NCBI GenBank assembly: GCA_965116885.1
Contig: OZ220741.1
Span: 4,352,001-4,416,000 of the forward strand
From: Candidatus Latescibacterota bacterium
Lineage (GTDB): Bacteria; Latescibacterota; UBA2968
Direction: 5' to 3'
DNA length: 64,000 nt
Of the stretch, positions 35,301-55,100 are shown one piece after another. The translations under genes were made by a program, and so were the position numbers. The notes under the pieces are model-generated. The model made no database searches and was not told the origin of the DNA. It saw only the letters and a program-made list of their open reading frames with translations. The first letter of the stretch is position 1; each line of letters opens with the position of its first letter.

Positions 35301-36912
35301 GACGGGGGCGATCAGGTGTAATGCTCAGTCGGGGAAATGTGCGCACAAAACCCTGCAACCCGCGCATGCGATCGTCGGGATCCAGCTTGTAATCGGGCAA
35401 AAAATCTTCGGAATTTAACCCGAGGTCAAGCACGCCGGCAAGCAGGCGTATCTGCCCGGTGAGATTTTTGAAATTCACATGTTCGGGTTTATCCAGCGGA
35501 GTATCTACTCTAAAACGCGCATCGTTGACCGTAATGAGCGATAGCGCTGGCGTGCCAGCTTCCAAAACGACCTCACCATCTGTCTTCAGGACTTTTCCCG
35601 GAATATACATATCCCAGTTCATGCCGCCTTTGGGATTGATTCCATCGATGAGGGCATCGGCGGGGTCCAGGTCAAAGCGCTCGGCTATCGCCTCTGAATA
35701 ATGCACAAGCGATTTGCCAAATGGTGTAAAGAAACGCTTGTAATAATAATTGCGCGTGCTGTTCCAAACCCCGATTTCATCTGTCTGACTCGTCAAATCC
35801 AGAGAAATGAACAGCGGCAATTCGAGAGGTTCAGTCATCAATGCGGCAAAATGCTTTTCTTTCCGCGAATGCCTGCTCAAAAAATCGCAAATACCTCTAA
35901 AGCCGAGATGATGCCCAGAAGATGCGAGAAACAAAAGCGTGTGTTTGGGCGGGTACTTGCTGAAATATTCGGCCAACTTCATCAGGCCCACAATCCCACC
36001 TGCCATCTCAGCGCCTGGCGCGAGTGCTGGTACTACAGACATCGCATCGTAATACGTATTGATCACCACGATTTTTTCGCTCAATACGGGATCGATTCCG
36101 CGAATCCAGCCCAAAATATTCCGGGTCTCTTTCTTTTCCCAATCCATTCGCGCCTTCAAAGTGACATTGACCTCATCCTTTTGCGCAATCAATTCCTTCA
36201 GCTTTTCGCCACTTGCCTTATCGATCCAAAAACGCTCAACACTATTGGGCACCTGCAAAAATTTGGTCTCTGCCTGCGCGGTAAACGTGGAATCGGGTTC
36301 GATAAACACAATCTGCTGTGCGCCGAGCATGGCGGCATTGAGCCAGTTGTTCCACGAATTAAATTCCATCAACACCACCGCGCCCTCTATATCGCGCCCA
36401 TTAAATTCCGACACATCGCCAGTGCCTCCCCACAAGAGATGCCCCCGCACGCCACCTGCGGGCAAGGTGGTCGTCTTGACCAGATTGGGCCACAAACCGT
36501 GAATGGTAAAAACCTCGCCTGTATCTTCCACCATTAAGCTGCCGCCCTGGTCTATGGGCACGGCCACGCCATACGTCTCGGATTCTACGTCTTCCATGCC
36601 AAAACGCCGAAACTCAGATTCTATAAAATCCGCGGCTTTTTCATGGCCGGAATAACCCACTACGCGTGAATCGTAGCGCACAAACTGATCCATCAACGCG
36701 CGAATCCCATCTTCGCGCACGGCATCCAAAACCCGTGTACCCACTTCTTCTGCACGAGGAACGGGTACGGGCGGAACCTCGCCGGGCACTTCCAATCCCA
36801 ATAGAGCAGCTATACGGGGATTTACGCGATAGGGACCGGCAATCAGGAGTGCCGTAACAAAAACCCCCAGGACGATAAGGCTCCATGTGATGTGCTTATA
36901 ATATTTATCCAT
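32395..36912 (-). CDS. Large membrane protein: M28-peptidase-like N-domain plus FtsX/MacB-like permease domains
   Basis: SRVVGYSGH..AA..I, YDAMS...APGA; C-terminal NTMMGSVYERFREIGIY..VG and SLYPARQA FtsX motifs. Confidence 0.75.
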   Translation of the reverse strand: MDKYYKHITWSLIVLGVFVTALLIAGPYRVNPRIAALLGLEVPGEVPPVPVPRAEEVGTRVLDAVREDGIRALMDQFVRYDSRVVGYSGHEKAADFIESEFRRFGMEDVESETYGVAVPIDQGGSLMVEDTGEVFTIHGLWPNLVKTTTLPAGGVRGHLLWGGTGDVSEFNGRDIEGAVVLMEFNSWNNWLNAAMLGAQQIVFIEPDSTFTAQAETKFLQVPNSVERFWIDKASGEKLKELIAQKDEVNVTLKARMDWEKKETRNILGWIRGIDPVLSEKIVVINTYYDAMSVVPALAPGAEMAGGIVGLMKLAEYFSKYPPKHTLLFLASSGHHLGFRGICDFLSRHSRKEKHFAALMTEPLELPLFISLDLTSQTDEIGVWNSTRNYYYKRFFTPFGKSLVHYSEAIAERFDLDPADALIDGINPKGGMNWDMYIPGKVLKTDGEVVLEAGTPALSLITVNDARFRVDTPLDKPEHVNFKNLTGQIRLLAGVLDLGLNSEDFLPDYKLDPDDRMRGLQGFVRTFPRLSITPDRPRPGAVASLRMGNDKSIKGVRRVYYDIADENGEFYMPGIAERRVDVKAFYMDPESGEITYAPNHGRQARIYRGEFNMDWWISKRTRILFPCVATDFYDTVDPRYLTKLSSISVLGPGNTAPQEYGYAIGFGPEEPVGTIFTTPGERIKIVMREREIGVRYLLLNSKSAESVEVARGDGFQILQHGGAFIRSSFQAAKDMWTLNEARMRELAKYSIENQRMTNLHDQAKYHLDLAEEAMKDRKWDLFVKHTRAGMGLESRAYPDVKSTQNDVIRGVIFFMLLVIPCAFFVERLLFTFSDIRVQIGGFSVVFVVIWTVLAQVHPAFDLSNPFVILLAFVILALAVFVISIVSGRFHDNIRQLRTEEVLLHDTDVGRISASVAAFQLGIANMKKRKMRTSLTFATLVLLTFTVLSFTSIKTTLDFHQLPLDDTEGKYPGLLIRSQFWGPLEDTAYDYARINFFDQGEIAPRSWYVTRDLKKTPIETPEKSTKVLGIVGLSVNEPAVTSIDTLLSHGRWFEEGEIACILPGKIAGLLEVEPGDVGKKSVRLFGKQLKVVGLIDAEKMRDLKDLDGEILSPADFKLTDDEIISQMTQRESREKQGLEQPQLENMPFEHIDPDDIAIIPYKILREVGSPLQSVAIRLHEDVNVEEQVKEYVSRLSVVVYAGIPGEDGKIEVSIYSSLGWGPLPGLANLFVPILVAALIVLNTMMGSVYERFREIGIYSAVGLAPVHISFLFIAEACVYAVLGTVSGYLLGQGVIKVLLWQGWLQGLNVNYSALSTVISSALVMVVVLISSLYPARQAALMAVPDVTRRWRLPDPEGDHWHFEFPFTVGGKDVFGLSVFLVDYFESHMGESMGAFYTDGARFGSVEAETGSGYTIDTTIWLAPYDLGVSQQVHFEAVPIGEHNIFAMTLTIDRLSGDVASWRRGNQGFMNALRKQFLIWRTVDPTNRAKYTEKGRELLAAPTAVVNA

Positions 36913-38896
36913 AGCGATGTACCCAATGTCCGCGTTCAGGGAACCAGATCATGTCGATACCCAATGACAAAGCCACGCCGAGAATATATCCGACGAGCAA
37001 ACCGATGAACAGGGGTCTCGATTTGCGATAAACCGTTGGCCCGCCTACTTTTATGATTACAAACTTAATCAACCAAGCCAGAAAAGTTGTAAAGCTGGTG
37101 CGTCGGGCCAGATAAGAACCCGAAATCGCCAACCCCACGGGATGCAGCGGCCACCACACAAAGCGATAGCGCATATAGATCAATCCAGCCATCAGAAGAC
37201 CGCCAATGCCCAAAAATACCGCTTGTTCGGGATGTTCCTCATAAAATGGCGGCTCGTCAGGTTTTTTGATCGCATCAACCGTGCTCTGAAAATGGCGTTC
37301 GGCTGCCCGCGTGATCTCCCAACTGTTGAAATTATAAGCCCCTTGATCGTAACCCAACCACACGGTAAACAACATATTAAACAGCAAGCTGACCATAAAT
37401 ACCAGTCCAAGCGCCCCCATCAACCGCCGCCGCTGATTGCCGGGAACACCCTCGGAAACACGCCCGGCATGGGAAAGCGCGGGCATAAACAAGCCCTTAA
37501 AATTCTCGTTAATCAGTGCGGAAAAGCGAAAAGAGACGAGGGTGGAAAGCGAGATATTGCGCCTTCCATAAAACGATGCGACCATACTCCATGACCCAAT
37601 GGGTTTGCTCGCAAATGGCATGCCGGTATCGGCGAGGATCTTCGCCATACCCGTATAGACAAAAATCGCTGCCAGAATATATAAAAATCCTTTAAACGGA
37701 TCGAAATTCATCTGCGTCAGCCAGATAAACAAATACGCTATGCTGCACAGCAAACCGATACAAGCGGCGCGATAGGACATCAATTCCTGGGAGTCATCCA
37801 CTGTGGGATCCCTCCCGAGAGCCTTCATCAACACATCGCGCAAATGTTTTCTCGCTACCCAGAATGTCGAACCCACAAAAACGACAAAGGCTCCAAAAGT
37901 CTGCCAGTAATACACTCCCGTGCGATAATAAGGCGTGGTGGCTTTATAGCCCCACTTAGTGAGCTGGCCACCTTCAAAGATGAACACCAGATCAAAAAAC
38001 CAGATTGAAAACAGAACATCCAGGCTGGCAAAATAAGAAAAAAGAATGGTAAAAATGCCAAAGTATCCCCTGATAGGCGGCAATTGGCGATCTATCCAGT
38101 ACCAGCGCGACCGATAAATGGGAAAACGCGGAAAGCCCGGCAAAAAGTAATTGATACAATTCCAGGCCAGCACGCCAAACGCAATGGCAAATCCGATCCA
38201 GAACAAGCGATTGCGCATAAACTCGGGCAACCACCCCTCACCATCACCCGGTTCAGAAGTCATATCGATCAACGGCGCCATTGCGGGAAAAACCAGGCGT
38301 TCGTTTTGCACCCATTGTTTTCTAAAAACAGTGGCCACACAGGCCAGCATTAAAAAAGCCGCCGCCACAACCGTCGTCCACCAAAACAGGGGCAATATCC
38401 ACACGCCCCAGGGGATAGTAGCACCACTCGGCAAGCCTTCGTAAAACCACGCAACGGCATTGCCCTCAGGGCTCGGCAAGAGCCAGTTGGGCAAATGCGG
38501 GTGCAAGTGCTCAGCCCACTGGTTTTCTTCCGTAGCAAAATAATAAGGTGCCGTGATATAGCCGATCAAATAACCCGTCATTCCAAAACACGGGAGTGCT
38601 GCCCCCACAAGACCCATCGCCAAAATTGCATGCCATTCGCCTTTTGAGAGCACCCAGCCGGTCATTTTGGCAACGATTGCGAGTCCGATCATCAAAATCA
38701 TCAAAATGATCAACATGGCCATTGGAATGTGGCTATACGTCATCAGCGAAGCGTGCAAGACATAGCGTACATACATAGCCAGCAGATCGAGGGCAATGAC
38801 GAGAAAAACGCCCAATCCCACAGCGCGCAATGTTACTGCAGGTTGTGAACTCGCATCATCTGTTTCCGTCTGAATATTTTGTATATCAAGAGCCAT
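36905..38896 (-). CDS. DUF6785/DUF6784-like polytopic membrane protein
   Basis: WVQNERLVFP, RYRFVWWPLHPVG, RPLFIGLLVG. Confidence 0.7.
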   Translation of the reverse strand: MALDIQNIQTETDDASSQPAVTLRAVGLGVFLVIALDLLAMYVRYVLHASLMTYSHIPMAMLIILMILMIGLAIVAKMTGWVLSKGEWHAILAMGLVGAALPCFGMTGYLIGYITAPYYFATEENQWAEHLHPHLPNWLLPSPEGNAVAWFYEGLPSGATIPWGVWILPLFWWTTVVAAAFLMLACVATVFRKQWVQNERLVFPAMAPLIDMTSEPGDGEGWLPEFMRNRLFWIGFAIAFGVLAWNCINYFLPGFPRFPIYRSRWYWIDRQLPPIRGYFGIFTILFSYFASLDVLFSIWFFDLVFIFEGGQLTKWGYKATTPYYRTGVYYWQTFGAFVVFVGSTFWVARKHLRDVLMKALGRDPTVDDSQELMSYRAACIGLLCSIAYLFIWLTQMNFDPFKGFLYILAAIFVYTGMAKILADTGMPFASKPIGSWSMVASFYGRRNISLSTLVSFRFSALINENFKGLFMPALSHAGRVSEGVPGNQRRRLMGALGLVFMVSLLFNMLFTVWLGYDQGAYNFNSWEITRAAERHFQSTVDAIKKPDEPPFYEEHPEQAVFLGIGGLLMAGLIYMRYRFVWWPLHPVGLAISGSYLARRTSFTTFLAWLIKFVIIKVGGPTVYRKSRPLFIGLLVGYILGVALSLGIDMIWFPERGHWVHRYG

Positions 38897-39110: not shown

Positions 39111-39183
<73 letters not shown>

Positions 39184-39239
39184 CCTTTTTTTGTTTGACC
39201 CTACACAGACGTAGATTTCCTTCTAAAAGTTCCAATAAG

Positions 39240-39374: not shown

Positions 39375-40166
39375 TTATAAACTCTGCGCCACCCGAAACC
39401 CCACATAAAGACTCCCGGCAAAGGTTCTGTGTTGGTCGCGAGCAGCCGAGCGAAGGAAATATCCTTCCAGATACCATGCACCACCGCGCACCACGCGCGA
39501 AGTAGAGTCGCCGACCTCCCACGCAGATCCGTCATCGGGTGCGCCCACATATCTATTATTATAACGATCCTGAGTCCATTCCCACACATTGCCGTGCATA
39601 TCGTGAAGGCCCCAGGCATTGGCCTCGAACGATCCCACAGGCGCTGACATCTCATTATCCCACTGACTGCCGCACCCATTGCAATTGGCGAGGTTTTGAC
39701 CGAGATTATTCCCCCAGCTATACCTCGTCACTGTTCCCGCACGCGCCGCATACTCCCACTCCGCCTCGCTCGGCAAACGATAGTTCTTCCCCGTCTGCTC
39801 CGATAACCACGCTGTGTACGCCACCGCATCGTCCCAGGTGATATTGATCACGGGACGCCGCCCCCGACCAAAACCCCGGTCATCTGCTCGCTCGCGCCCC
39901 GTCGCATCCGTGAAGAGATCGTATTCCTCAAATGTCACTTCGTACTTCGACAGCGCGAACGATGCAATCGTCACCTCATGCACCGGCCTCTCGCTATTAT
40001 TACAACTTCTCCCCGACACGCACCCCATCTTAAAATTTCCCGCGGGAATTACCACCATCTCCGGCGTTTTAAAAGAAGCCCCTTCCTCCTGTGAAACACG
40101 AGCAGATGCAACCGTGAAAAATCCCAATGCGATTACAGCGAAAACACTTTTGATTACTCTCTGCAT
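39375..40166 (-). CDS. Secreted FGE-sulfatase (formylglycine-generating enzyme-like) domain protein
   Basis: Signal peptide; IPAG.F.MG, YRLPSEAEWEYAARAG, GLHDMHGNVWEW, RVVRGG.W, GFRVA. Confidence 0.88.
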   Translation of the reverse strand: MQRVIKSVFAVIALGFFTVASARVSQEEGASFKTPEMVVIPAGNFKMGCVSGRSCNNSERPVHEVTIASFALSKYEVTFEEYDLFTDATGRERADDRGFGRGRRPVINITWDDAVAYTAWLSEQTGKNYRLPSEAEWEYAARAGTVTRYSWGNNLGQNLANCNGCGSQWDNEMSAPVGSFEANAWGLHDMHGNVWEWTQDRYNNRYVGAPDDGSAWEVGDSTSRVVRGGAWYLEGYFLRSAARDQHRTFAGSLYVGFRVAQSL

Positions 40167-40410
40167 GATCTCTCTCCTGTCATTACCACCTGATAAATGC
40201 TCATAACAGAAAAAATAAGACAACTTCCTATGGATGAGAAACATATTTTTTACCTTCCGATAGTCACATTGACCAGGGCGCCAGGGCGGACGTACTTTCC
40301 CGCATTCAAAAAAAGACCTGTTACTTTGCACGTCCCATTTTCGGGATCAATTATGGGACTGATCCCGACGACGCGCCCGGGCAGCGCGCTTTCCGCCAGC
40401 GGGTTGTATA

Positions 40411-41604
40411 TCATAGTTGTTCTCCTGTCAGACGAATACGTAACACACCCCTGAATCGCACGTTTTTGCGTTTCAGGGCCTCGATCTCTTTCTGCTTTTC
40501 CGCCAGTTTTCTCTCTACTTGCTCCAGTTTCAGGTAATGCACGGGCGGATAAGCCATTTTTAAGTCCTCCAGTTTTTCATAGATCTCTTGCTTCTGCCTT
40601 AACAAATCTTTTATGCGCTCAGCGAGACCTCTTAAAATGGGCTGAAACCGCAAAATCTCCTTTTTTTGCGCAAATTTGAATTCAATCTCCCGGGTAGTGA
40701 AACTGACAGCACCGCCCAGACGTTCTTCCTCCCCAACTTCAAAAGAAGCATCTGCCTCGAGCAGGCCAGACACAAAACTGTTTGCGGGGATCCGCTCCAC
40801 CAGTTCCTGATAGGTCTCGCCTCTTAACTGAATCGTCTGTATTCTCACGGGACGATCCGTCTCCTCCACGCGCACCTTATCCGGCAAAATGGCACCGTGT
40901 TCTCCGCAGGTCAGAACTCGCCCATTGAAAAAGATCCAGAACCAAGCGGGCCTGGCATCGAGGATCAGGGCTTTTCCACTCACCTTCTCCCGCGTGTGTC
41001 GCCATTGTCCTTCAAAATTCAAATAGGTTTCTGTATTGGCTCTCCGATAATCTGAGTATGCGGCCGAAGGCGTCGCCATCAGGTATCTAAACGATCGCCA
41101 GATACCCCCCTTATGTGATACGGGCATGAACAATAGGAGCAGTATGACAACCACAGCCAATACAGTGCCCTCCCCCATGAGGGATCCCGTTTTGATTCTG
41201 TATCTCGCACTGCCAGGAAAAACGCAAACCGCGGGATGGGGATAAAACAGGGGCACGCCGCTTTTGGTCGTACTATCGGCGATCAGATGGCTCATATAGC
41301 CCAGGAGCACAGCCGCATAACATGCGGTTTCCCAGGCGAGTAAAGGCAGAGTGACAACCGATAGAGCGAGCATACAGAGCAGCGAATGCGTAATCGTGCG
41401 GTGCCCCCATCGCCGCTCAATCGGGATCGAAGCAAAGGGCATCGCCTTGCCAATAGAACTCCTCGGTGAATCCACATCTGGAAGCAGGCTCCCTATGATC
41501 GCGCATGCGACCGCGGGAAGATTGCGGTGAAAGGACATGGAAAAGAGCGAAAAGGAACTCGCCACCGTGAGCAACCCAAATGCAATGTGTGTAGGTGCAG
41601 TCAT
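40411..41604 (-). CDS. YdjM-family membrane metal-dependent hydrolase with C-terminal extension and coiled coil
   Basis: MTAPTH, GSLLPDVD, GHRTITHS, SHLIAD..T..GVPLFYP. Confidence 0.85.
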   Translation of the reverse strand: MTAPTHIAFGLLTVASSFSLFSMSFHRNLPAVACAIIGSLLPDVDSPRSSIGKAMPFASIPIERRWGHRTITHSLLCMLALSVVTLPLLAWETACYAAVLLGYMSHLIADSTTKSGVPLFYPHPAVCVFPGSARYRIKTGSLMGEGTVLAVVVILLLLFMPVSHKGGIWRSFRYLMATPSAAYSDYRRANTETYLNFEGQWRHTREKVSGKALILDARPAWFWIFFNGRVLTCGEHGAILPDKVRVEETDRPVRIQTIQLRGETYQELVERIPANSFVSGLLEADASFEVGEEERLGGAVSFTTREIEFKFAQKKEILRFQPILRGLAERIKDLLRQKQEIYEKLEDLKMAYPPVHYLKLEQVERKLAEKQKEIEALKRKNVRFRGVLRIRLTGEQL

Positions 41605-43091
41605 CGTTTGAACCTGTACATAAAGAATCGAATGCCTACCAGAATCGCACTGCCAATGCCGGCCAGCACATACCCTTCCATACTCCCGATACCGCGCATG
41701 AAGAATCGCGCCGCGACCACGAATAGTAGAATCAGCACCACGGCGAACGTGAGATCGATCTGCGCTCGCGCGCCGGTGTGGGACACATCTCGCACCGCGG
41801 ATCGAGTTACCGCCGGTTCTTTGCGAAGCCGCTCCACAATCTCAATAATGGCGCGCGGATTACCAGCACTCTGTTGTAATACGCGAGTCTCGGTCATGGC
41901 GTAGTCTTCTATGTCGGCGCCCGCGGCGCACTGGCGGATGAGTTTTTTCGCGTCCGCAGTAGATAGGTGCTCTATTTCTACGCGGTCGAACTTCCAGAAG
42001 TATTTCTCGTAAGGCTTCCGGACTTCTGGTAGCGCAGCGATAATGGTAAACTTGCGGTTGAGTTTGTCGATCAATCGCCCGACGGAGGCGGTCATATCCG
42101 ACAGGTCATCCACGATCAACACGAACTCATTTTTCTTCACCGAGCCGAGCACCATATCTGTCCAGCCCTGAATGCTCGTGCGGGTGTGTTGCTTTTTGAT
42201 CGTTTTAAAGTTGTCTGGACCATCCGGACATAGCCTTCCGATTTTGTGCAACCCCTCCGCAATATTTATCAGGTTCTCTTTCACTGGTGAAAGCGTCTTT
42301 ACCTTCAGCGCGTTCTCTGCGTTGAGCAACGCGAGTAAATGACTTTTGCCCACGCCAATCGGGCCAAGCAATAGTGTGTCAATACCCTTGCTCAAGTTGT
42401 CTGTGAGTTGGCACAATTCCTCATCGCGTCCCACTGTCTTTCCCATCTCGACTCTCGACCGCGCAAAAAATCTGTAATTGCGATTCTTCTGGCGCGACCA
42501 CCACCGCGACAACCGCGACCTGCGATCAATGCGATCAACAGAACGCCGCTTTTGCTCTTCACTAACAGAGATGTAGATGGAGGCTGTCTCAATGGACGCA
42601 TGCCCCATCAAGTCCTTGATCCGCTCGACCGGCACATCCCGATCTGCCAGGTCAGTGCCGAAGGTATGCCTGAGCATGTGCGGATGGACGTGGCGGATCC
42701 CCGCGCGCTGCGCGCAGGTCTTCATGGCCGCCCACACAGTCTTGCGGCTGAGTTGCTGTCCGTTGCGGAGATTGTAAAAGACGTATTCAGAATCCGAAAA
42801 CCGACGGGACTCCAGCCATTCTCGGAGCACATCCTGCACCTCGGGGTTCATCGGGACAACGCGCTCTTTGCCACGCTTATCCGCAAAGCGAAGGCTCGGT
42901 GTGTCCGTTGACCAGTGGATATTGTCAACCGTGAGTGAACACGCTTCGGAAACGCGCAGACCACACATCGAGAGCACGGCGATCAGCGCGCGATCACGCG
43001 AATTCATGCGTACAGATTTGAGTGCTTCAAGCTCGTGTTGCGCGAGCGCTTTTGGTACTGCTGGACGGGTTGCGAGTGACTGGTGAACCAG
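41601..43091 (-). CDS. Tyrosine recombinase catalytic domain fused to P-loop ATPase and two C-terminal TM helices (probable CTG start)
   Basis: GLRVSE, KRGKER, HMLRH, MGH, SIY; Walker A GPIGVGKS, Walker B LIVDD; frame open upstream through PKAL..HEL to CTG at 43089-43091 with GGAGG 8 nt before. Confidence 0.85.
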   Translation of the reverse strand: MVHQSLATRPAVPKALAQHELEALKSVRMNSRDRALIAVLSMCGLRVSEACSLTVDNIHWSTDTPSLRFADKRGKERVVPMNPEVQDVLREWLESRRFSDSEYVFYNLRNGQQLSRKTVWAAMKTCAQRAGIRHVHPHMLRHTFGTDLADRDVPVERIKDLMGHASIETASIYISVSEEQKRRSVDRIDRRSRLSRWWSRQKNRNYRFFARSRVEMGKTVGRDEELCQLTDNLSKGIDTLLLGPIGVGKSHLLALLNAENALKVKTLSPVKENLINIAEGLHKIGRLCPDGPDNFKTIKKQHTRTSIQGWTDMVLGSVKKNEFVLIVDDLSDMTASVGRLIDKLNRKFTIIAALPEVRKPYEKYFWKFDRVEIEHLSTADAKKLIRQCAAGADIEDYAMTETRVLQQSAGNPRAIIEIVERLRKEPAVTRSAVRDVSHTGARAQIDLTFAVVLILLFVVAARFFMRGIGSMEGYVLAGIGSAILVGIRFFMYRFKR

Positions 43092-43144
43092 GGGAATGCC
43101 CTCCTGAATGGGTTTGGAACTGAAACTTCGTGCCCTTTAAATAG

Positions 43145-43160
43145 TGCAAAAATCGTGCCA
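43145..43160 (-). promoter_or_regulatory. sigma54 (-24/-12) promoter
   Basis: Minus strand TGGCACGATTTTTGCA, matching consensus TGGCAC-N5-TTGCW. Confidence 0.8.
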
Positions 43161-43237
43161 AACAAGCCGAAAAACCCGTAAGTGCTTGCAGGAGAGCGTA
43201 TTTTTAAAAAACGCCCAAAAACGGACATGCCGAAAAC

Positions 43238-43274
43238 TGTTTCAAATGAAACAGTTGGTGTGTCATATGACACA
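43238..43274. promoter_or_regulatory. Two palindromic TGT-N10-ACA enhancer-like sites
   Basis: TGTTTCAAATGAAACA (43238-43253) and TGTGTCATATGACACA (43259-43274), 21 bp apart. Confidence 0.65.
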
Positions 43275-43403
43275 GTTGGGATAGGAATGAGGCAGGGGGA
43301 TTACAGAGGAAATCACACAAAAAATGCCCTGAAGAACACGGGGCATTTTGGAGGGTAGTTATGATATTGGTGCTCTGATGAGCACTATATTGGAAATGTC
43401 GCG

Positions 43404-43700
43404 AGCGACCAGAGCGATCAGTATCTATCCCTCACATTTGGAAAGCGTTGTCGTGAAGCTGGCAGGCGCCCCTCAATGGGGTCTATAGGCGATTGCTATG
43501 ACAACGTGATGGGCGAAAACTTCTTCTCTACCCTTGAATGTGAGTTAATCAATCGCCATTGTCTCCTTACACCAAGGAAGCACAGTTGAACATCTTCGAA
43601 TACACTGGGGTGTGGTATAATCCGCATCGCAGGCATTCTTCCATCGCCTGCGATGCGCCGATGACTTATGAAAAACTGCATCTATCACAGGCTTGATACA
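43404..43700 (+). mobile_element. Degenerate IS3-family transposase (OrfB C-terminal) remnant
   Basis: Own translation: SDQSDQYLSLTFGKRCREAG..PSMGSIGDCYDNVMGENFFSTLECELI, frameshift, IFEY..VWYNPHRRHSSI. Confidence 0.85.
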
Positions 43701-43792
43701 GCTTGCCGTATAGAATCTCTGGATTAAACCATTCCAGAGCAGACTATTACGGCACATGCTTCGCAAGCCATTGGTGCGCGCGATCACCTTGC

Positions 43793-43855
43793 TCACGTTT
43801 TTCTTCGCGCGAAGGTATCCAGCTCATGCCGGACAGTCTCACTGGACAGCTCAGC
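43793..43855 (-). pseudogene. C-terminal tail of a tyrosine recombinase (homologous to 55414-55680)
   Basis: AELSSETVRHELDTFARRKT* vs AELS...TVRQELDAFARKKT. Confidence 0.6.
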
Positions 43856-43864
43856 CGCGCCCTA

Positions 43865-44887
43865 TCACTGTTTTCCCAGAGAACGGCCGTTCACATAGGT
43901 TTCTGTTTCGGTGGTCCCGTCCAATCCACGCCAGATCCAATGTCCGTGCCTTTTCCCACCCACATAAGAGCCTTCCCCTTGTCCACCTGGATAAGGCTCG
44001 ATCCACTGGCCCTGCTTCTTGCCATCGACATAAGCGCCACCCCCTACGCTACCATCAGATTCATGAGTGACCCATTTTCCGTGTTTCTTGCCAGCGACAT
44101 AAGCACCTTCCGCTTGTTTTGGGCTATAGATGTCCGGCCAACGCTCGACCCACAGGCCGTGCCGCTTGCTATTCACATAGGGTCCTTTCTGTTCCGTAAT
44201 GCCTCCAGTCAGAGTCGATATACGATCGGTCCACAGACCTTGCCGATAGCCGTTCTGGAGATATCCCATGGCTTCTTCTCTTCTTTCGTCCCAGCGATCT
44301 TCATATGGGTTGTAACTGTAATTTCGGAGGCGTGTTCCCGCCCCCTGTGCAAAGCCATCGGAACACACGCCAGACCAGGTCACGGTCTCGTCTTTCTGCA
44401 GGTTCGGGTTCCAGACGTAGCATTCAGGCTGGTCGGTCAACGCCATCCAACAACGGGAGCCTACAGGCTTTCCTTCACACATATTCTCAGGCGTGACCTG
44501 AAGCCCCCCAAGCTCCTTCTCAAGCTCCTCCTCAATCTCCTCAATCTCGATCAACAACGCCAATGCCTCCTTGTAAAACTCACGCCCTCTCCCTGCTGAC
44601 AGATATTTGCTCACCGCGTCAAGCGCGATCTGAATTGAGCCTACTGAAAAGGCAATCTGTGCATATTTGAAGTGGAATTCATCCAGCAACGTGATATTGT
44701 GTTCTTTCTGCAGCGCGAGGATCTTGTCCATCATATTGAGCGCAGCCACATAGTCTTTTCTCTCAAATAACTGTTCTGCCTGCACCAGATATTTATCCGC
44801 GATGACCTCTGGCGGTAGTTGAGCGGATGCAATCGTAAAGAATCCCAGTGAAAATAGAACAAAAATACTTCTGATCACGTTCTGCAT
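43865..44887 (-). CDS. Secreted protein with TPR-like N-domain and MORN-like (GKKHG.W) repeats
   Basis: Signal peptide + QLPPEVIADKYL; repeated G.YV.GK+.G.W units. Confidence 0.7.
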   Translation of the reverse strand: MQNVIRSIFVLFSLGFFTIASAQLPPEVIADKYLVQAEQLFERKDYVAALNMMDKILALQKEHNITLLDEFHFKYAQIAFSVGSIQIALDAVSKYLSAGRGREFYKEALALLIEIEEIEEELEKELGGLQVTPENMCEGKPVGSRCWMALTDQPECYVWNPNLQKDETVTWSGVCSDGFAQGAGTRLRNYSYNPYEDRWDERREEAMGYLQNGYRQGLWTDRISTLTGGITEQKGPYVNSKRHGLWVERWPDIYSPKQAEGAYVAGKKHGKWVTHESDGSVGGGAYVDGKKQGQWIEPYPGGQGEGSYVGGKRHGHWIWRGLDGTTETETYVNGRSLGKQ

Positions 44888-45003
44888 TGTGTCTTTCCTA
44901 TCATCAATTTTCGCCCTATCGCTGCTCAAAGAATTTTCTCTGGACTTCAGATATTTCCACTGTAAATATGCACGTCTTGCACCAAAACGGGAGAAACCCA
45001 ACA

Positions 45004-45744
45004 TTACGGATACATTAATTCTATATTTAATCGCAATTCCTTATCTAAGGAATCACCAAACATCCACTTATCCTCACAAAATATTCGCAATAGGTTTTGA
45101 AGATGCTTTGGTATCGGATCGCCTTCAATACTTAGAATATCCTCAATATCGGCACAGTCTGATGGATCGATAGTAAACCTATATGGCGTGATAGATGATG
45201 AAAAGGGAGCTTTCAATAAATCAAATTTCCTGCATGAATCAGAATCGCGCCAATCAGCAGGTGCGATGGCAAAACCATCCTGACGGATCCATCGATGCTT
45301 TAAACCGCCATCGTCAAGCTGATGAGTCAAAAAAAAATGATCAATTATGATTGCTTTATTTGACATGGTTTTACAATCCAGTTTGTAGATGACCGCCTCT
45401 TGACCCGGCTTAGCATTAAGGAGAGCAAAGAATATCGCTACTTCAAGTTTTGCAGACAGATCAATCAATGGGGTGGGCCATCCGTAGTGCTGGAGTACTG
45501 CAATTCCGTCTAGCGGACCTATACTGTAACCACGTAAGCCCTTGCCGATTTCTTTGGCATAACGGCACGTCGTGTAGGCTTGTCCAATCCGCAGTTTTTC
45601 ACACGCTGGGATACGTGCGAAGCGCGATTTTACACTCGAGTAAATTTGTGATTGTCCACGAAACAAGAATCGTGGTTTTCCTGATGGTAGCATTTCTTTT
45701 TCTAGAGACTCGAGTTGAGTTCTGATTGATGCGAGCTGTGTCAT
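45004..45744 (-). CDS. FRG-domain protein
   Basis: FLFRGQS, LQHYGWPTPLIDLS...VAIFFA, R...Q.G; AT-rich. Confidence 0.85.
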   Translation of the reverse strand: MTQLASIRTQLESLEKEMLPSGKPRFLFRGQSQIYSSVKSRFARIPACEKLRIGQAYTTCRYAKEIGKGLRGYSIGPLDGIAVLQHYGWPTPLIDLSAKLEVAIFFALLNAKPGQEAVIYKLDCKTMSNKAIIIDHFFLTHQLDDGGLKHRWIRQDGFAIAPADWRDSDSCRKFDLLKAPFSSSITPYRFTIDPSDCADIEDILSIEGDPIPKHLQNLLRIFCEDKWMFGDSLDKELRLNIELMYP

Positions 45745-45802
45745 AGTATTCTTCTCCTTGGGTTAAGTCCAAAAAATTCTGTAAAAAGGTAACCTCGTGA
45801 TA

Positions 45803-45988: not shown

Positions 45989-48763
45989 CTAAAAAGACCG
46001 GACAACTCGAAAACCGATGTAGAAGTTCCGGCTCTCGGCGGTGTTCTGGAAGCGACTCGCCGAACGCAAGCCACTCGGTTCTTTGCCCCACGAACCACCA
46101 CGAACCACGCGCCTATAACAGTTGCCGCTCTCCCACGCAGAACCGTCAGCAGGCGCCCCCCGGTAATTGTCGTTCCAACAATCTTGCACCCACTCCCACA
46201 CATTGCCGTGCATGTCGTAAAGACCCCATCTGTTGGCACTAAACGAGCCTTCTGGGGCTGTCTTCACTGCATCCCACTGACTGCCGCAACCATCGCAATT
46301 GGCGCGGTTGCGACCAATGTCGTTACCCCAACTATACATCGTCGTTGAGCCAGCACGGGCAGCATACTCCCACTCCGACTCACTCGGCAAGCGATAGTTC
46401 TTCCCTGTCTGAGACGATAGCCAATGCGTATAGGCCACCGCATCATCCCAATAAACATTGATCACTGGACGCCTACCCCTGCCCCAGCCTTCGTCGTCCG
46501 CTCGCTCGCGTCCCGTCGCATCTGTGAAGGCATCGTACTCCTCGAATGTCACCTCGTACTTAGACATTTCGAACGATGCTATACGCACACTATGCACAGG
46601 CTTCTCCCGGTCATAGCAGTCTATACCCGACACGCAACCCATTTGAAAACTCCCCGCTGGAATCACCACCATCTCCGGCATTGGAAAACTTGGGATACGC
46701 AGTTTCACTGTTTCCACGATGAGTCGCGCTTTCGATCCGGCACCACCCCGATGCCGCCAGACCTGCGTTTCCGTGTTCTCTCCGGTAACGCGAATCTCGC
46801 CCGTATTTGCATCTCTGTGGCTACAGTGGTCTCCCTTGTATCCCGTACCGTTGAGCGCTGTCAGTTCCACCTGGTAGGTCTCCCCCCCACGAACCTCTAT
46901 AGCCTGGCAGTCCCACTCATTGAAGATCTCTCCGGAAAATACGGTCCGTCCTTCCACATCAACGCGGATCTCATCCCCATCTTCGCACTCGTGGTCTCGC
47001 ACGCAAATCTCAAGACTCCCTGTCGCACCTCTGATTTTCATCGGGAAGTCCCGAAGCCCCTGATCGCCGGTGACGGTCAGGCACCCATCCAGTGACATAT
47101 CATCACGCGCGGTACGCATCATCTGTGCATCGCTATAGACAGAGCCATCAGCAGCGGCAGAAAGCTCAATTTCTGAACCTGGGCGAACTTCGATCTCGAA
47201 TCGCCCCTCAACATCCGTCGTTGCCTTAGAACGCCCGACATAGTCTTTCCCGTGCGCTGTCACCTCTGCATTTTTGACCGGCTTCCCCTGCTGATCCTGG
47301 ACGCATCCCGTCATCGTAATCGACTCATATAGCACGTCCGCATTCCACGTCGAAAAATGTCCCACGCTTCCCGTATAGGCCCACTTCCCATCTGCGGTCC
47401 TCTCCAGCATTGCTGTGCCTTCCTCAACCCAATAACCCGTCGCATCCGACCAGTAATACAACGGGATTGATTTGGGAGCATCTTCAGGCCGTCGTCCAGA
47501 GGCCAGAGGGATCGAGATACGCGCCTGTTTCCCGCTGGCGAGATTCAGCCGATTGCCATTTCCACCCGTAAATTCCACATTCATCGCACCGAAGGACTCA
47601 ATAGGCTCGGCCTCGCCTGTATCCGCATTCCACTGTTCCATATCGCCCGGCATCACCGAGGGATCTTTCGACGCATCCAGCACTGTTACCCTCGCAGTCG
47701 CCTGTCCGGACGCAACACCTCCGCTGTCTGTCATCAGGACATTGGCAGACAGCGAGACAACCGTTTGACCATCCACCTGTATCGCGGCATTGTTTTCCGG
47801 CAGGAAGGACTGCGTCACCTGCACCGGTATCATGGATAGGTCAGCCGTTCTCCTCGATCCATCAGAGACATCAACAATGATCGATTGGGGCGCGAAGCCT
47901 GTGGCATTTGCAGTGACGGTCAACCTGCCCGGCTTGACCCGCACTTGAACAGTATATTTGCCATCTCTGCGCGTTCTTGCAGTGCCCACCTTTTGAGAGA
48001 TGTCACCCTGATATTGGCGAACGGTAATGGCGGCTCCTGAGATGCCCCTGTACGTCGCATGGTTCTTGATGGTTCCGGACAAAAGAATCCCCAGTACCGT
48101 TCCGGACTGGGGATTTTCCTGTCGTCCATATGTTGCGATCTTCACCATCACTTTATCTGTTGCCGTTGCATTGTCGTCATCCGTGACACGCAAACGAAAC
48201 GTCAGGGTAACGCCGCCCTCGACTTTGGGTGCAACAAAGGACACAGAGGCTTGATTCTCGTTTGAAAGCGACACGGAAGGACCAGCGATCTGCTCCCAAT
48301 GATAGGTCTCAACCGCGCCGTCCGGATCCGATGCACTGCCGCGAAGCCTCACCCTGTCGCCCACATTAACCGTCTGATCGGAACCGGCTTGTGCATTGGG
48401 CGGCTGGTTGAGCTTGCCCACGATCGTCACGGCCACTTGATCGGTTGCCGTTGCATTGTTGTCATCTACGACGGTCAGGCGAAACGCCAATATCTGGGAA
48501 CCTTTGACTCTGGGTGCGACAAAGGACGCAGATGCCTGATTCTCGTTTGAGAGCGACACAGGAGGTCCGGCGATTTGCTCCCAGCGATAGGACTCAATCG
48601 CGCCGTCCGGATCCGATGCACTGCCGAAGAGCCTCACCCTGTCGCCCACATTAACCGTCTGATTGGAACCGACCTGTACATTGGGCGGCTGATTTGACTC
48701 ACAGCCTGCGAACAGGACAACCAGTGCAAGCAATATGAACGTGATCAATTTGTTGTGTGTCAT
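45989..48763 (-). CDS. Lipoprotein: two PKD/Ig-like repeats, carboxypeptidase-regulatory-like domains, C-terminal FGE-sulfatase domain
   Basis: Lipobox FAGC; NQPP...G.ASDPDG...Y.W.Q x2; GHFSTWNAD; YRLPSESEWEYAARAG, GNVWEW. Confidence 0.85.
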   Translation of the reverse strand: MTHNKLITFILLALVVLFAGCESNQPPNVQVGSNQTVNVGDRVRLFGSASDPDGAIESYRWEQIAGPPVSLSNENQASASFVAPRVKGSQILAFRLTVVDDNNATATDQVAVTIVGKLNQPPNAQAGSDQTVNVGDRVRLRGSASDPDGAVETYHWEQIAGPSVSLSNENQASVSFVAPKVEGGVTLTFRLRVTDDDNATATDKVMVKIATYGRQENPQSGTVLGILLSGTIKNHATYRGISGAAITVRQYQGDISQKVGTARTRRDGKYTVQVRVKPGRLTVTANATGFAPQSIIVDVSDGSRRTADLSMIPVQVTQSFLPENNAAIQVDGQTVVSLSANVLMTDSGGVASGQATARVTVLDASKDPSVMPGDMEQWNADTGEAEPIESFGAMNVEFTGGNGNRLNLASGKQARISIPLASGRRPEDAPKSIPLYYWSDATGYWVEEGTAMLERTADGKWAYTGSVGHFSTWNADVLYESITMTGCVQDQQGKPVKNAEVTAHGKDYVGRSKATTDVEGRFEIEVRPGSEIELSAAADGSVYSDAQMMRTARDDMSLDGCLTVTGDQGLRDFPMKIRGATGSLEICVRDHECEDGDEIRVDVEGRTVFSGEIFNEWDCQAIEVRGGETYQVELTALNGTGYKGDHCSHRDANTGEIRVTGENTETQVWRHRGGAGSKARLIVETVKLRIPSFPMPEMVVIPAGSFQMGCVSGIDCYDREKPVHSVRIASFEMSKYEVTFEEYDAFTDATGRERADDEGWGRGRRPVINVYWDDAVAYTHWLSSQTGKNYRLPSESEWEYAARAGSTTMYSWGNDIGRNRANCDGCGSQWDAVKTAPEGSFSANRWGLYDMHGNVWEWVQDCWNDNYRGAPADGSAWESGNCYRRVVRGGSWGKEPSGLRSASRFQNTAESRNFYIGFRVVRSF

Positions 48764-49070
48764 TTTACTCCCACCCATAGAGGCTGTAAATGTGTGAGCA
48801 GACGGCTTACACATCTCCAGTCAATTTGGGTTAAAACTGAGGGATGATTGTAATCTGCCTGAGGCATACCGCACACCTATCCCGAGCAATTCGAGCCTGC
48901 GGCATCTGTAATACCCTGAAGCCACGCCTGAAAGGCCGCATCAAGCGGCGCACATAGCCCTGTGTTATGAAAGTAAAATTGCTTCAGCTTTGTCAGCCCG
49001 GGCAGGCTTTGGGGAAGCGCACCCATCAAGGATGCGTTATCCTGGAGCCACAGAGTCTCAAGATTAGACA
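48599..49070. repeat. Segmental duplication (LRR 3' end, spacer, PKD-lipoprotein 5' end); second copy near 61399-61880
   Basis: Near-identical sequence at an offset of 12812 bp. Confidence 0.85.
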
Positions 49071-51851: not shown

Positions 51852-51867
51852 TGCAAAAACCGTGCCA
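51852..51867 (-). promoter_or_regulatory. sigma54 (-24/-12) promoter of the LRR gene
   Basis: Minus strand TGGCACGGTTTTTGCA; IHF-like TAAAGGATTGTTT at 51899-51911. Confidence 0.8.
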
Positions 51868-52148: not shown

Positions 52149-55100
52149 ATGATCAAACCGCTTGTCCGCACGGGCACCTACCGGACTTATTCTATGGCCG
52201 ATGGCCTGGCCGGGGTGCGCATTGAACACATTGCCGAAGATAGCGAGGGGTGTATCTGGTTCGCCACATGGGAAAACGGCGTCAGCCGCTTTGATGGGGA
52301 CGAGTTTCAAAATTTTACGCAACAGAACGGACTTATTGATGATCGTACCTATTTTGTTACACAAGACAGTCAGAACCGATTGTGGTTTGGGACAGCAAAT
52401 GGCGTCTGCTGGTACGACGGAGCCAGATTCCACCATTTGAAGGACGATGGGATTGCAGACCGAGACGTGCGGTGTATCTACGAAGACAATGAAGGCCGTG
52501 TATGGTTCGGTGGTACCCGTACTATAGGGTATTACGATGGCACTGCTTTCCACGACATGATTCCGCTCTACCTGCAAGACTACGAAGAGCCTCCTTCTCC
52601 CAAGTGGCGTCCGTGTTGGGGTATTACTCAGGATCCGCAAGGACACCTGTGGTTCGGCTTTAACTACCTCATCCGCTTCGATGGTGAATCCTTCCACCGC
52701 TACGATGAGAAAGACGGTTTCTCTCAGGAAGGGACCGCCTATGCCGTAGATACGGATCATACCGGCAAAGTGTGGGTCGGACGGTTCGAAAATCGAGATG
52801 AAGTCTGGTGCTATGCCAATGGCACCTTCCAATCTGTTCAGGTCGATTTAGGTGGCGCACTGCGCAAAATACAGTGTGACCGTGAAGGGCGAATGTGGTT
52901 CTGTACGTCAGAAGGGGGATTGTATCAGGACGGTGATGGCTTTAGCAGGTTTACCATTGCCGATGGTTTGCCCCATCCCGCAGTCAAAGCCGTGTTTGAG
53001 GATCGAGATCATCAGTTCTGGTTTGCCACCTGGGGCGGCGTCGGTCTTTACGATGCACATAGTATCAGTGTTTTTGACCTCGATAAGGCTTCTCCCAAAG
53101 AGAAAGAGCCGAGCGAGATCTCGCAGATCGTACAAGACCGGCAAGGTGATATATGGATCGGGTGTGTATCACCCATTTTTTCCTATCTGAACAAAAGCGT
53201 CGCCCGCTTCGATGGTGAGCGCTTTGCATTTGTAGGCTCCGAGCAAGGCTTTGATCTCGACAACTGTTTCTCTATGTACGAGGATCACGAGGGATATATG
53301 TGGTTTGGCGGTCTCAATGGCCTGTTCCGCTACGATGGACAAGAATTCAAAAAGATGAAAATAGCTGCGGTTTCAGGCGACAGGAGTATCAGTGCAATTG
53401 CCCAGGACTTGCAGGGTCAATTCCTTTTCGGCTATTGGAAAAAGGACACTTATAAAACCCAATTTATGATAAAAGCAGAACTCTCGATCAGCCCCTTAAA
53501 GATCATTTACCAGCGGGACGAAACATTCCAAACCATTTTTGTAGAGAAAAAAAAGAAAGATGCTTTAGACCGTATTGGCACTGTGATTGCCGGGCGAGAT
53601 GGCGAGGTCTATTTTCATCTGGTCTGCCACAATTTTTCAGTTGGCAACAGGGGCCTGGCGCGGTGGCATCCCGAAGATGGTCTTAAATTTTATGGCATTG
53701 AAGATGGACTGATCGACGACAGGGTCACAGACCTTATAGAAGACCGCAATAGCAACCTGTGGATCGCTACTCTGAGTGGTCTTTGTCGCTTTGATGGCAA
53801 CACCTTCCAGACCTTCACGACAGACGATGGGCTGCCGAGCAACCGCATCCGTTGTTTGTTCGAGGATCGAAAAGGCCACATCTGGATTGGTACAGACAGG
53901 GGTGTGACGCACTTTGATGGTCAGCTTTTCCAGACCATCAACTCACCGCATATAGGACTGGTTTGTCGGATATTCGAAGATCGCGATGGAACATTCTATT
54001 TTGGCACGCTTCTGGGTTCTATCATACGCTACCGCCTGCGGCAAACTTCGCCCCGGATTCACTTGATACAAGTGATTGCTGATCAAGACTATGAGAATCT
54101 GGAGGAAGTCATCGTATCCACGGCGGGACAGCAGGTGATTTTCGAGTACAAGGGTCTGAGCTTTTCCACACACCCCAGCGACATGCTCTACATCTATCGC
54201 CTGAATGGCTATGACGCCGACTGGCAACCAGCGACCCGAAAGATGCGGGCGCATTACCGGGGCCTGCCACCGGGAGACTACACCTTCCAGGTCCGGGCTA
54301 TAGATCGCGATCTCAATTACTCAGAGATCGCGCAAGCGCGCCTCTCGATCACAGAAGACCCGCGTATCGAAGCATTGACCGACGTCATCAACCGGCGAGA
54401 AAGCCAGCAGTTTATTGGTCATAGCGTGGCTCTGCGCCAGTTTCAGACCAATCTTGAAAAAATTGCATCTACCAATATGACCGTGCTGGTTCTGGGCGAG
54501 ACAGGTGTGGGCAAGGGACTGGCTGCTCGAACACTACACGCGCTGAGTGCCAATAGCGACGGCCCTTTTATAGAGGTCAGTTGCGGTGCATTACCCGAAG
54601 CGTTGATCGACAGTGAGTTGTTTGGTCACGAGAGAGGGGCTTTTACTGGCGCAGTTTTCCACAGGCTGGGCAGGGTGGAACTGGCAGAGGGTGGTACGCT
54701 CTTTCTGGATGAGATCGGCGATATGGCTGTGGAAACGCAGTCCAAACTGTTGCGCTTGCTGGAAGAGGGCAGGTTTGAACGCATTGGGAGCAGCGAAACG
54801 CAGATGGCAAAGACGCGGGTTGTGGCAGCGACCAATCGCGACTTAAAGGAGATGGTCCGCACAGGTGATTTCCGGGAGGATCTGTATTACCGCCTCAATG
54901 CCTTTCCGATGTATTTGCCGCCGCTTCGCGAGCGCAAGGAGGATATACCAGAGTTGGCCGAGTTTTTCAAGACTCGCATGGCGACGCATCTGGGCAAGCG
55001 AATTGCTCCCCTGACACCTGAAATTATCGAGGTGTTGCAAAGCTACGATTGGCCGGGCAATGTGCGGGAACTGGAACATACCATACAGCGAGCCGTGGTT

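Follow-up and report, generated by a model that had tools for sequence, protein, structure and literature searches.

An undescribed, horizontally mobile membrane module of an ATPase, a YdjM-family hydrolase and an optional tyrosine recombinase in Candidatus Latescibacterota and other bacteria

The analysed DNA is a 64,000-nt stretch of a sponge-symbiont chromosome, that of Candidatus Latescibacterota bacterium (assembly GCA_965116885.1, contig OZ220741.1, positions 4,352,001-4,416,000 of the forward strand). This whole stretch is called the window below, and coordinates are window positions, position 1 being its first letter. The minus strand of the window carries an operon whose first gene (41601..43091; 496 codons and a stop codon) specifies one protein in which the catalytic domain of a tyrosine recombinase precedes an ATPase anchored in the membrane. 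This gene is followed by one of 397 codons (40411..41604) for a YdjM-family metal-dependent membrane hydrolase (residues 1-168) with a beta-sandwich/helical-hairpin extension (residues 169-397). The third member of the operon is a 54-codon open reading frame (ORF; 40250..40414), the remnant of a gene for an HlyD-like periplasmic adaptor with an in-frame internal deletion of approximately residues 5-192. An initial annotation of this DNA had claimed translational coupling of the fusion to the YdjM-type gene, and a direct reading of the sequence bears this out: an ATGA overlap at 41601-41604 joins the stop of the fusion gene to the start of the YdjM gene. A second ATGA, at 40411-40414, joins the YdjM gene to the 54-codon ORF.

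The first in-frame ATG of the fusion gene lies at 43007 and opens an ORF of 468 codons ending at 41601, with the frame open upstream to 43130. The nearest database relatives, 95-97% identical, start 28 codons further upstream with the residues MVHQSLAT. At the corresponding position, 43091, the alignment has ATG in all five relatives and in a paralogous locus of the same genome, and CTG in the window. A Shine-Dalgarno box AGGAGG (43100..43105, minus strand) is located 8 nt before the CTG and is kept in the relatives. Because of these ATG codons and the conserved box, 41601-43091 was taken as the gene. Thus the CTG at 43091 is the most likely start, and the ATG at 43007, used by the initial annotation, was abandoned. 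Residue numbers of the fusion protein refer to the 496-aa sequence counted from this CTG.

The recombinase domain occupies approximately residues 12-195 (42507..43058, minus strand). The Pfam family Phage_integrase (PF00589) matches residues 33-191 of the extended frame with 136.8 bits, above the curated cut-off of 27.1, and the catalytic residues R46, K72, H138-x-x-R141, H164 and Y173 are all present. No N-terminal SAM/core-binding domain was found in the fusion with Pfam and NCBIfam profiles. The window protein begins about 12 residues before the catalytic half, and members of the family begin about 10 residues ahead of a conserved LPKAL helix. The domain is followed by a P-loop ATPase of the AAA_16/STAND-like type (approximately residues 219-440; 41772..42437, minus strand) with a Walker A motif G243-x-x-G-x-GKS250, Walker B aspartates D328/D329 and the sequence GNPRA at 410-414; a G-x-P motif is a hallmark of STAND proteins. 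Pfam AAA_16 scores 23.8 bits in the window protein, under its cut-off of 32.6. The cut-off is reached by homologs (36.7 in locus L141 and 38.0 in L150), and nSTAND1 is just under the cut-off in two homologs.

The protein ends in a hairpin of two hydrophobic helices (approximately residues 447-495; 41607..41753, minus strand), which is conserved through the family. No C-terminal repeat sensor (TPR, WD40 or LRR) is present, only this hairpin after the ATPase. The AlphaFold2 (AF2) model (pLDDT 79.8) has three parts: the recombinase domain, a P-loop domain of alpha/beta fold that bears a helical lid, and two long terminal helices, 448-468 and 471-495. In Foldseek searches the recombinase part matches XerA (4a8e, E 6.1e-9, 182 aligned columns, root-mean-square deviation 2.1) as well as XerH and phage integrases, and the ATPase part matches the RFC small subunit, RuvB, NB-ARC proteins and ORC. 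The initial description of a complete catalytic domain without a core-binding domain, joined to a Walker A/B ATPase and two C-terminal transmembrane (TM) helices, therefore stands. Tyrosine recombinases are usually regarded as soluble and ATP-independent.

The product of the second gene matches Pfam YdjM (PF04307) with 96.6 bits (cut-off 29) on residues 1-168, and also Zn_dep_PLPC with E 1.6e-4. The ligand residues H6, D43, D45, H68, H73, H106 and D110 are invariant in 19 sequences. To our knowledge, no enzymatic activity is known for any member of the YdjM family. The cut-off of the model of the E. coli YdjM ortholog, PRK11648, is not reached (85.1 vs 216). The extension had been described as a long coiled coil. 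The YdjM domain of that description is sound, but in the model (pLDDT 87.5) the extension is more than a coiled coil: a helical hairpin is inserted into a beta-sandwich. Foldseek with the whole model retrieved nothing at E<=0.001. A wide structure search (VIA) aligned 78 residues within model residues 165-253 with the beta-sheet of the TrmB sugar-binding domain (Z 11.0) and returned many coiled-coil matches, with Z of about 8, for residues 325-381. An impression from the alignment that the extension resembles a membrane fusion protein (MFP) was dropped as unsupported, with no MFP-like match among the wide structure matches listed. According to Tan et al. 2021 (PMC8557891), YdjM is related to alpha-toxin phospholipase C, HET-C and S1-P1 nuclease, serves as the toxin tip of RHS proteins and is usually joined to a beta-sandwich. 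These relations agree with the Zn_dep_PLPC match and the beta-sandwich model obtained here.

A contact between the two proteins was predicted from the ATPase-TM part (residues 216-496) and the YdjM protein, with a score of 0.33 against 0.01 for the best control. The pass mark is met by 116 of 157 solved complexes and by two of 215 mismatched pairs; at scores of 0.60 or less it is met by only 18 of the 157 complexes and by both passing mismatched pairs. Between runs, at least 85% of contacts agree, and the pLDDT of the partner is at least 76. The modelling thus lends weak support to a contact between the ATPase-TM part and YdjM.

The upstream region of the fusion gene contains a candidate sigma54-type promoter TGGCAC-N5-TTGCA (TGGCACgatttTTGCA, 43145..43160, minus strand) and two palindromic enhancer-like sites (TGTTTCAAATGAAACA and TGTGTCATATGACACA), which occupy 43238..43253 and 43259..43274 (minus strand). 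The arrangement follows the sigma54 consensus GG-N10-GC with upstream activator sites. Both elements had been named in the initial annotation, and both are supported by counts. The promoter motif has two matches in the window vs 0.14 expected, none of 100 shuffles gave two or more, and the site at 43160-43145 is invariant in the alignment with five relatives. In the phylum, where context was counted over 30 loci from 22 genomes, the motif is found shortly upstream of the first gene in 20 loci and approximately 460-500 nt upstream in two more. The palindromes have the form TGTKTCA-N2-TGAMACA, are spaced by 21 bp centre to centre and lie approximately 80-115 nt upstream of the -24 element. Genome-wide, only six such sites exist in 5.56 Mb, arranged as three pairs at three loci, with none in the reversed control. 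They are conserved in all three promoter copies, which precede the window operon, a paralogous HlyD-like/YdjM operon at 1.63 Mb and a gene for a receiver-AraC regulator. Palindromes of this kind occur in 19 of the 30 phylum loci, all within the same genus.

Immediately upstream of these enhancer sites is a terminator-like hairpin (ATGCCC...GGGCAT between A and T runs, 43321-43349), also conserved in the paralogous copy of the promoter; it would shield the operon from transcription arriving from upstream. Contigs from RNA libraries touch 40403-40563, 40995-41215 and 41767-41929 with 2-22 differences, which is no demonstration that the operon is transcribed.

A gene for an NtrC-type response-regulator activator, one of the enhancer-binding proteins of bacteria (bEBPs), adjoins the paralogous operon in two relatives. 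Its ortholog in the genome studied here, 84% identical and 466 aa long, is intact and located elsewhere on the chromosome. In-frame stops noticed in this ortholog both lie upstream of the real start, and the gene is not disrupted. This ortholog may be the cognate activator of the operon.

The window has a second candidate sigma54 promoter (TGGCACGGTTTTTGCA, 51852-51867, minus strand) upstream of a gene for a 954-aa leucine-rich-repeat (LRR) protein (48877-51741, minus strand). Divergent from it is the gene for a 1072-aa activator (52149-55367, plus strand), in which a Reg_prop/Y_Y_Y sensor is joined directly to a sigma54-interaction domain and HTH_8. By its position this bEBP is more likely tied to the promoter at 51852-51867 than to the operon, and it may serve as sensor and activator in one component, with a eukaryote-like LRR protein under its control. 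A search with an NtrC-type activator gave 44 matches in this genome, many of them in open frames of more than 1000 aa, an unusually large repertoire of sigma54 activators. Close to the module, Reg_prop beta-propeller sensors are encoded in three unrelated settings: on plasmid pA5BP1 as a protein of 480 aa (L145, 1548-2990), as a 1278-aa histidine kinase (L125, 1199-5035, genome G061) and as the activator of the window. This may be a coincidence or a sensory link.

The fusion is widespread. Searches with the full protein yielded 489 database proteins at E<=0.001, many of them from long contigs or complete genomes. Among 1.84 billion representatives, the ATPase-TM part matches 390 clusters at E<=0.001, of which 247 reach E<=1e-10. 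In the best 150 ATPase clusters, 88 have a recombinase domain and are mostly 480-525 aa long, 46 clusters of at least 250 aa lack it, and 16 are short fragments. With 88 such clusters, the concern that the fusion is an assembly artefact can be put aside; to judge by these sequences, it is real and old. Public annotation labels the fusion 'tyrosine-type recombinase/integrase' and its partner 'metal-dependent hydrolase', and a protein-atlas look-up returned generic stand-alone ATPase clusters only.

Conservation of individual residues was counted over 78 diverged full-length fusions and the window protein (n=79). The ATPase residues K249 of Walker A and P412 are kept in 79/79 and D328 in 67/79. 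In the recombinase domain R141 is kept in 78/79, Y173 in 75/79, H138 in 62/79, H164 in 58/79 and R46 in 56/79. The expectation that homologs retain the catalytic residues and the YdjM partner is thus borne out for Y173, R141 and the partner (29 of the 30 phylum loci), but not for R46 and H164, which are replaced by Phe and Ile, respectively, in 13/79 fusions each; therefore catalysis is not universally kept. The ratio of nonsynonymous to synonymous substitution rates (dN/dS), computed against four relatives, is 0.11-0.17 for the fusion gene (recombinase part 0.14-0.19, ATPase-TM part 0.09-0.18) and 0.19-0.24 for the YdjM gene. Both genes are under purifying selection.

Within the phylum the ATPase part was found in 22 of 168 genomes; in the genus itself, 15 of the 20 further genomes have it. 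A YdjM-extension gene directly follows the ATPase in 29 of the 30 loci, and the thirtieth is cut by a contig end. The recombinase domain is present in 13 loci and missing from the other 17. The stand-alone ATPase-TM proteins, 281-306 aa long, come in two forms: one is a paralog (75-80% identical), the other a fusion that has precisely lost its recombinase part.

Among 72,556 plasmids searched by tblastn, 11 encode the ATPase, and all are typed as non-mobilizable. Six carry the fused form (Flavobacterium pA5BP1, Spirosoma, two Haliscomenobacter, Flammeovirga and Thiospirochaeta) and five the stand-alone form (Methylobacter, Allochromatium and three Nitrosococcus). In all nine plasmid contexts examined, from Bacteroidota, Gammaproteobacteria and Spirochaetota, a C-terminally extended 'metal-dependent hydrolase' of the YdjM family is adjacent or within 5 kb; it is truncated in Flammeovirga and split off by an insertion sequence in Thiospirochaeta.

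Stand-alone relatives were found in 10 of 401 sampled Bacteroidota genomes, and the fused form was not found in this sample. In several of the Bacteroidota loci a full-length integrase gene immediately follows the ATPase-TM gene. A YdjM-extension gene of 552 aa stands two genes upstream of the ATPase in three of five enlarged loci, where a KaiC/RecA-like ATPase is likewise encoded just upstream of the ATPase-TM gene. In a fourth, where the ORF filter had dropped the ATPase gene, a 592-aa YdjM-extension gene is nearby. The split form (L141 9083-14513, genome G433; also L142 and L144) is a block that holds a 260-aa zinc-ribbon KaiC/RecA-like ATPase, a 187-aa Pol-beta-thumb protein, Lin1244_N and a 431-aa protein. 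It ends in the integrase next to the housekeeping genes for ProRS (prolyl-tRNA synthetase) and DnaE and may be an integrated element.

A FastTree phylogeny of recombinase domains was built from 165 rows: 79 fusions, 81 generic Xer proteins and five Bacteroidota integrases, four of them encoded directly beside the ATPase-TM gene and one by a convergent neighbour. The five integrases group as sister to the largest clade of fusions (55 rows), with a support of only 58, and the subclade of 24 that includes the window protein falls on the Xer side.

The loci of the phylum, the plasmids and Bacteroidota show that the ATPase-TM protein, the YdjM-extension protein and a tyrosine recombinase, fused or neighbouring, recur together across phyla. 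Because the first two recur as a pair (29/30 loci, 9/9 plasmids) while the recombinase varies, the core of the module, as far as gene content tells, is the ATPase and the YdjM hydrolase; the recombinase is a frequent, selected and dispensable arm. The initial annotation had placed the recombinase at the centre, which does not hold, as 46 of the 150 representative clusters (at least 250 aa) and 17 of the 30 phylum loci do without it and the YdjM partner is kept.

One possibility, in our view rather unlikely, is that the module maintains plasmids or integrative elements. The recombinase would resolve multimers or integrate the element site-specifically, and the anchored ATPase would gate or position this reaction, as a self-contained analogue of XerCD activated by FtsK; YdjM would have some role in the membrane, and the copy in the window would be a domesticated or decaying remnant. 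All 11 plasmid carriers are non-mobilizable, the module is often within a few kb of rep genes, and pA5BP1 has no other annotated recombinase. The full-length integrase at the edge of the Bacteroidota block described above, the conserved catalytic residues and the closest similarity of the recombinase domain to Xer proteins point the same way. However, many ATPase-YdjM pairs lack a recombinase, five plasmids included; no repeat or dif-like site was identified; and the genome also has two ordinary Xer-type recombinases. In the genus, moreover, the operon is chromosomal and sigma54-controlled, with a recombinase-less paralog under the same enhancer.

Periplasmic HlyD- or OEP-like proteins are accessories of the module. 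In most phylum loci with enough flank, an HlyD-like gene follows the YdjM gene. The intact 242-aa gene of the relatives matches HlyD_3 (65.2 bits vs 22.2) and HlyD_D23. By comparison with them, the 54-codon ORF is all that the window keeps of this gene after an in-frame loss of approximately 190 codons. One database protein (P0132) is a fusion of YdjM and HlyD domains. On the gammaproteobacterial plasmids a secreted coiled-coil protein is encoded just upstream of the ATPase, and the Flavobacterium plasmid encodes an OEP-like protein (a weak match).

These partners fit a signal-induced operon for envelope or lipid remodelling, in which the ATPase, YdjM and the HlyD-like adaptor would form a trans-envelope machine for membrane stress or export and the recombinase would merely tether DNA or regulate, with no strand exchange. 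The sigma54 and enhancer control, the response-regulator activator beside the paralogous operon of the relatives, the common recombinase-less versions and the loss of R46 and H164 in 13/79 fusions are consistent with it as well. On the other hand, the distribution is patchy and plasmid- and island-borne, and an integrase linkage recurs in another phylum. The retained tyrosine (75/79) and R141 (78/79) and the dN/dS of 0.14-0.19 in the recombinase part argue for a retained DNA-directed activity. We consider such a remodelling operon quite unlikely. A conduit for DNA export or import seems highly improbable. It would use the recombinase as a relaxase-like protein that nicks DNA and binds it covalently, the ATPase as a coupling factor, and YdjM and the HlyD-like protein to span the envelope. 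The membrane anchor, the periplasmic coiled-coil partners, a DNA-cleaving domain that forms covalent intermediates and the RadA/KaiC-like ATPase added in the Bacteroidota loci speak for this purely inferential scheme. However, neither a channel-forming nor a pilus component was seen, the ATPase does not belong to the translocases of the FtsK/VirD4 type, and the recombinase is dispensable in many members.

In the genome studied here the paralogous locus lacks the ATPase and the window locus lacks the HlyD gene, so that one set of parts is divided between two loci under the same enhancer. It is conceivable, though doubtful, that the local copy is a non-functional relic, which would concern this genome only and would be compatible with any reading of the family. 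Its start is CTG where five of five relatives and the paralogous locus have ATG, its HlyD-like gene has lost about 190 codons, and the ATPase gene is gone from the paralogous locus. However, both long ORFs are intact with low dN/dS, the Shine-Dalgarno box, promoter and enhancer sites are preserved, a full set of parts remains between the two loci, and CTG is usable as a weak start codon.

The module is a flexible, mobile cassette. In three relatives the operon is in the same place as in the window and is followed by an FGE-sulfatase gene and a DUF6785 gene. In a close relative (G090), a 6.4-kb cassette, which holds the operon with its promoter and three genes as well as a gene for 849 aa, is replaced by approximately 100 nt between the same flanking genes, and the tRNA-Phe gene is kept. 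The latter, tRNA-Phe(GAA), is located in the window at 39111..39185 (plus strand) and marks the flexible locus that the initial annotation had recognized beside it.

An FRG-domain gene (PADLOC PDC-S15) is directly upstream of the operon, and two GmrSD genes lie 17 kb away. Related loci contain matches to NsnA/PD-T4-2, PDC-S45, LmuA-like, PDC-S19, PD-Lambda-4_B and RecD-like genes, and one match to a pAgo model that is Schlafen-like in Pfam. Plasmid neighbours include MazF, RelE and PIN toxin-antitoxin genes, type I restriction-modification, DruA and dGTPase. Genes of conflict systems are thus often found near the module, but this is suggestive only.

Several other features of the window and its surroundings deserve mention. 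The GmrSD-type (type IV restriction) genes, encoding 751 and 602 aa, are adjacent (20391-24466, minus strand). Palindromic REP-like (repetitive extragenic palindrome) repeats, 43624-43668/45849-45893 and 43736-43778/45821-45863, flank a 2.1-kb segment with a repeat-rich 379-aa gene and the FRG-domain gene. One contig (run X2) skips from 43635 to 45761; this suggests an insertion/deletion polymorphism, weakly, as its short side is 22 letters. A 300-nt direct repeat, 74% identical (39474-39773 and 46088-46387), is the FGE-sulfatase domain shared by the flanking 318-aa and 941-aa genes. The DUF6785/DUF6784 membrane family (36905-38896, minus strand) is much expanded, and a search with this protein gave 25-36 matches in each of five genomes of the genus. 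A 661-aa ORF (59309-61294, minus strand) combines GPP34 (Golgi phosphoprotein 3) with a cytochrome P450, an unusual pairing for a bacterium.

Taken together, we tentatively favour, at somewhat less than even confidence, a mobile conflict module or a membrane module that stabilises its plasmid or island. It would consist of an AAA_16/STAND-like ATPase held in the inner membrane by the two-helix hairpin and a YdjM-family (zinc phospholipase C/P1-nuclease-like) membrane hydrolase with a beta-sandwich and a coiled-coil domain. The optional DNA-acting arm would be a recombinase catalytic domain, fused to the N-terminus of the ATPase or encoded as an adjacent integrase. With an enzyme at the N-terminus, a P-loop switch and an anchor at the C-terminus, the fusion is laid out like those immune proteins of the STAND type whose N-terminal domain becomes active through oligomerisation. 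What was observed is the architecture with its conservation, gene linkage across phyla, purifying selection, promoter elements and cassette mobility; the biochemical steps, the biological role and the cognate activator are our inference and may be pictured as follows. The genes would be switched on via sigma54 and an NtrC-type response-regulator activator. Nucleotide-driven oligomerisation of the anchored ATPase would then gather the recombinase domains, which alone could not clamp DNA in the absence of core-binding domains; a recombinase without a DNA clamp would plausibly need such an assembly. The assembled recombinases might cut or rejoin DNA at the membrane, either incoming phage or plasmid DNA or the DNA of the element itself. 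The same oligomerisation would control the YdjM hydrolase, which would attack membrane lipid or nucleic acid. The net role may be exclusion, defence of the abortive-infection type, or stabilisation of the carrier plasmid or island.

A number of observations weigh against this proposal. PADLOC-DB 2.0 has no model matching the fusion or the YdjM protein: the sole hit of the fusion is mad8 (E 0.0026, without a scored stretch), and the YdjM gene has none. The ATPase part has no match in 50,697 phage records, and an exact-peptide scan of IMG/VR gave one weak partial hit, 28% over 79 residues. The STAND assignment of the ATPase is soft, since AAA_16 is under its cut-off and the folds of RFC, RuvB and ORC match too. 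The associations with defence genes are anecdotal, as plasmids and islands carry such genes anyway, and we know of no general tendency of defence systems to be under sigma54 and enhancer control. Plasmid maintenance is fitted at least as well by the frequent proximity to replication genes on plasmids and by the 14.4-kb pA5BP1, where the fusion is the only annotated recombinase. The replacement of R46 and H164 in part of the fusions also counts against the proposal, as do the negative results on inversion, excision and a DNA target site given below. The window copy is partly eroded (ATG to CTG at the start, an internal deletion in the HlyD gene) and may work poorly, and the paralogous locus of this genome has lost its ATPase.

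Neither inversion nor excision, both anticipated near the operon, was seen: contigs from public runs contain no such joints around it, and no convincing flanking inverted repeats or dif-like DNA target site were found around the promoter or the operon. A contig joint of 'opposite strands' at 43240/43293 coincides with the palindromic enhancer sites and probably arose in assembly. Thus, of the initially proposed signal-induced, membrane-tethered module for DNA rearrangement or transfer, the fusion, the coupling and the promoter are real, but no rearrangement was observed, and this is one of several possible readings.

If the parts work together, the YdjM/DUF457 family, long without an explanation, would gain a function, site-specific recombinases would be shown to have a new principle of regulation, and a new plasmid- or island-borne system of conflict or maintenance would join the known ones. 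A catalytic domain without a DNA clamp, welded to a membrane-anchored P-loop switch and partnered with YdjM, departs from the view of recombinases as soluble and independent of ATP. A bolder version, which we think unlikely, is a new class of ATP-gated, membrane-tethered tyrosine recombinases. In these, an ATPase ring would replace the core-binding domain, and DNA would be cut or recombined only at the inner membrane, together with a trans-envelope YdjM/HlyD apparatus. If true, it would be a new way to couple site-specific DNA chemistry to the envelope, serving immunity or mobile elements. Thanks to its plasmid versions, for example that of the 14.4-kb Flavobacterium plasmid, the module is directly testable in culturable bacteria.

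Literature searches retrieved no published description of the fusion architecture or of the ATPase-YdjM gene pair. The ATPase-YdjM-recombinase module is an undescribed, horizontally mobile membrane module, which shares features with several known systems. The recombinase is most similar to Xer proteins, and XerC/XerD (XerA, XerH) with FtsK likewise combine a tyrosine recombinase with a membrane-anchored ATPase. However, here the two are fused in one chain without a core-binding domain, and its ATPase resembles AAA_16/STAND proteins or clamp loaders instead of the FtsK motor with its RecA fold. The NCBIfam Xer models match the catalytic half only, far under their cut-offs (135.9/220, 127.1/329.6 and 123/335, score/cut-off), and the genome keeps two ordinary Xer-like genes besides. 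The invertases of the FimB/FimE type are tyrosine recombinases that also lack the N-terminal core-binding domain. Unlike the fusion, they have no ATPase or membrane anchor; invertase models score 59.4 vs 221 and 47.5 vs 222 here, and no invertible segment was found.

The AAA+ helpers of transposases, IstB of IS21, TnsC and MuB, are analogous in that an AAA+-type ATPase is tied to a DNA recombinase, fused or adjacent. However, they are soluble and serve DDE transposases, and the IstB model scores only 18.5 here against a cut-off of 200. The HlyD-like adaptor of the relatives and the OEP-like coiled-coil protein of the plasmids recall tripartite efflux systems. The module differs from these in that it has no permease, its ATPase is not ABC-type, and the adaptor is short (242-264 aa) and missing from the window.

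The order of effector, P-loop switch and C-terminal module, the resemblance to AAA_16, nSTAND1 and NB-ARC, and the location on islands and plasmids near defence genes are shared with STAND/NLR-like defence NTPases (Avs and others). The fusion is much smaller, however, has a membrane hairpin instead of a repeat sensor and matches no PADLOC model. Searches by term in the main texts of two STAND surveys (PMC13581612, PMC7159879) gave no mention of a tyrosine recombinase as the N-terminal effector. Finally, the YdjM partner is like the YdjM/DUF457 family, a proposed toxin domain of the phospholipase type (Tan et al. 2021, PMC8557891), in keeping the His/Asp ligands followed by a beta-sandwich. It differs in that it is not an ortholog of E. 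coli YdjM, has an added helical hairpin and is paired with a membrane ATPase.

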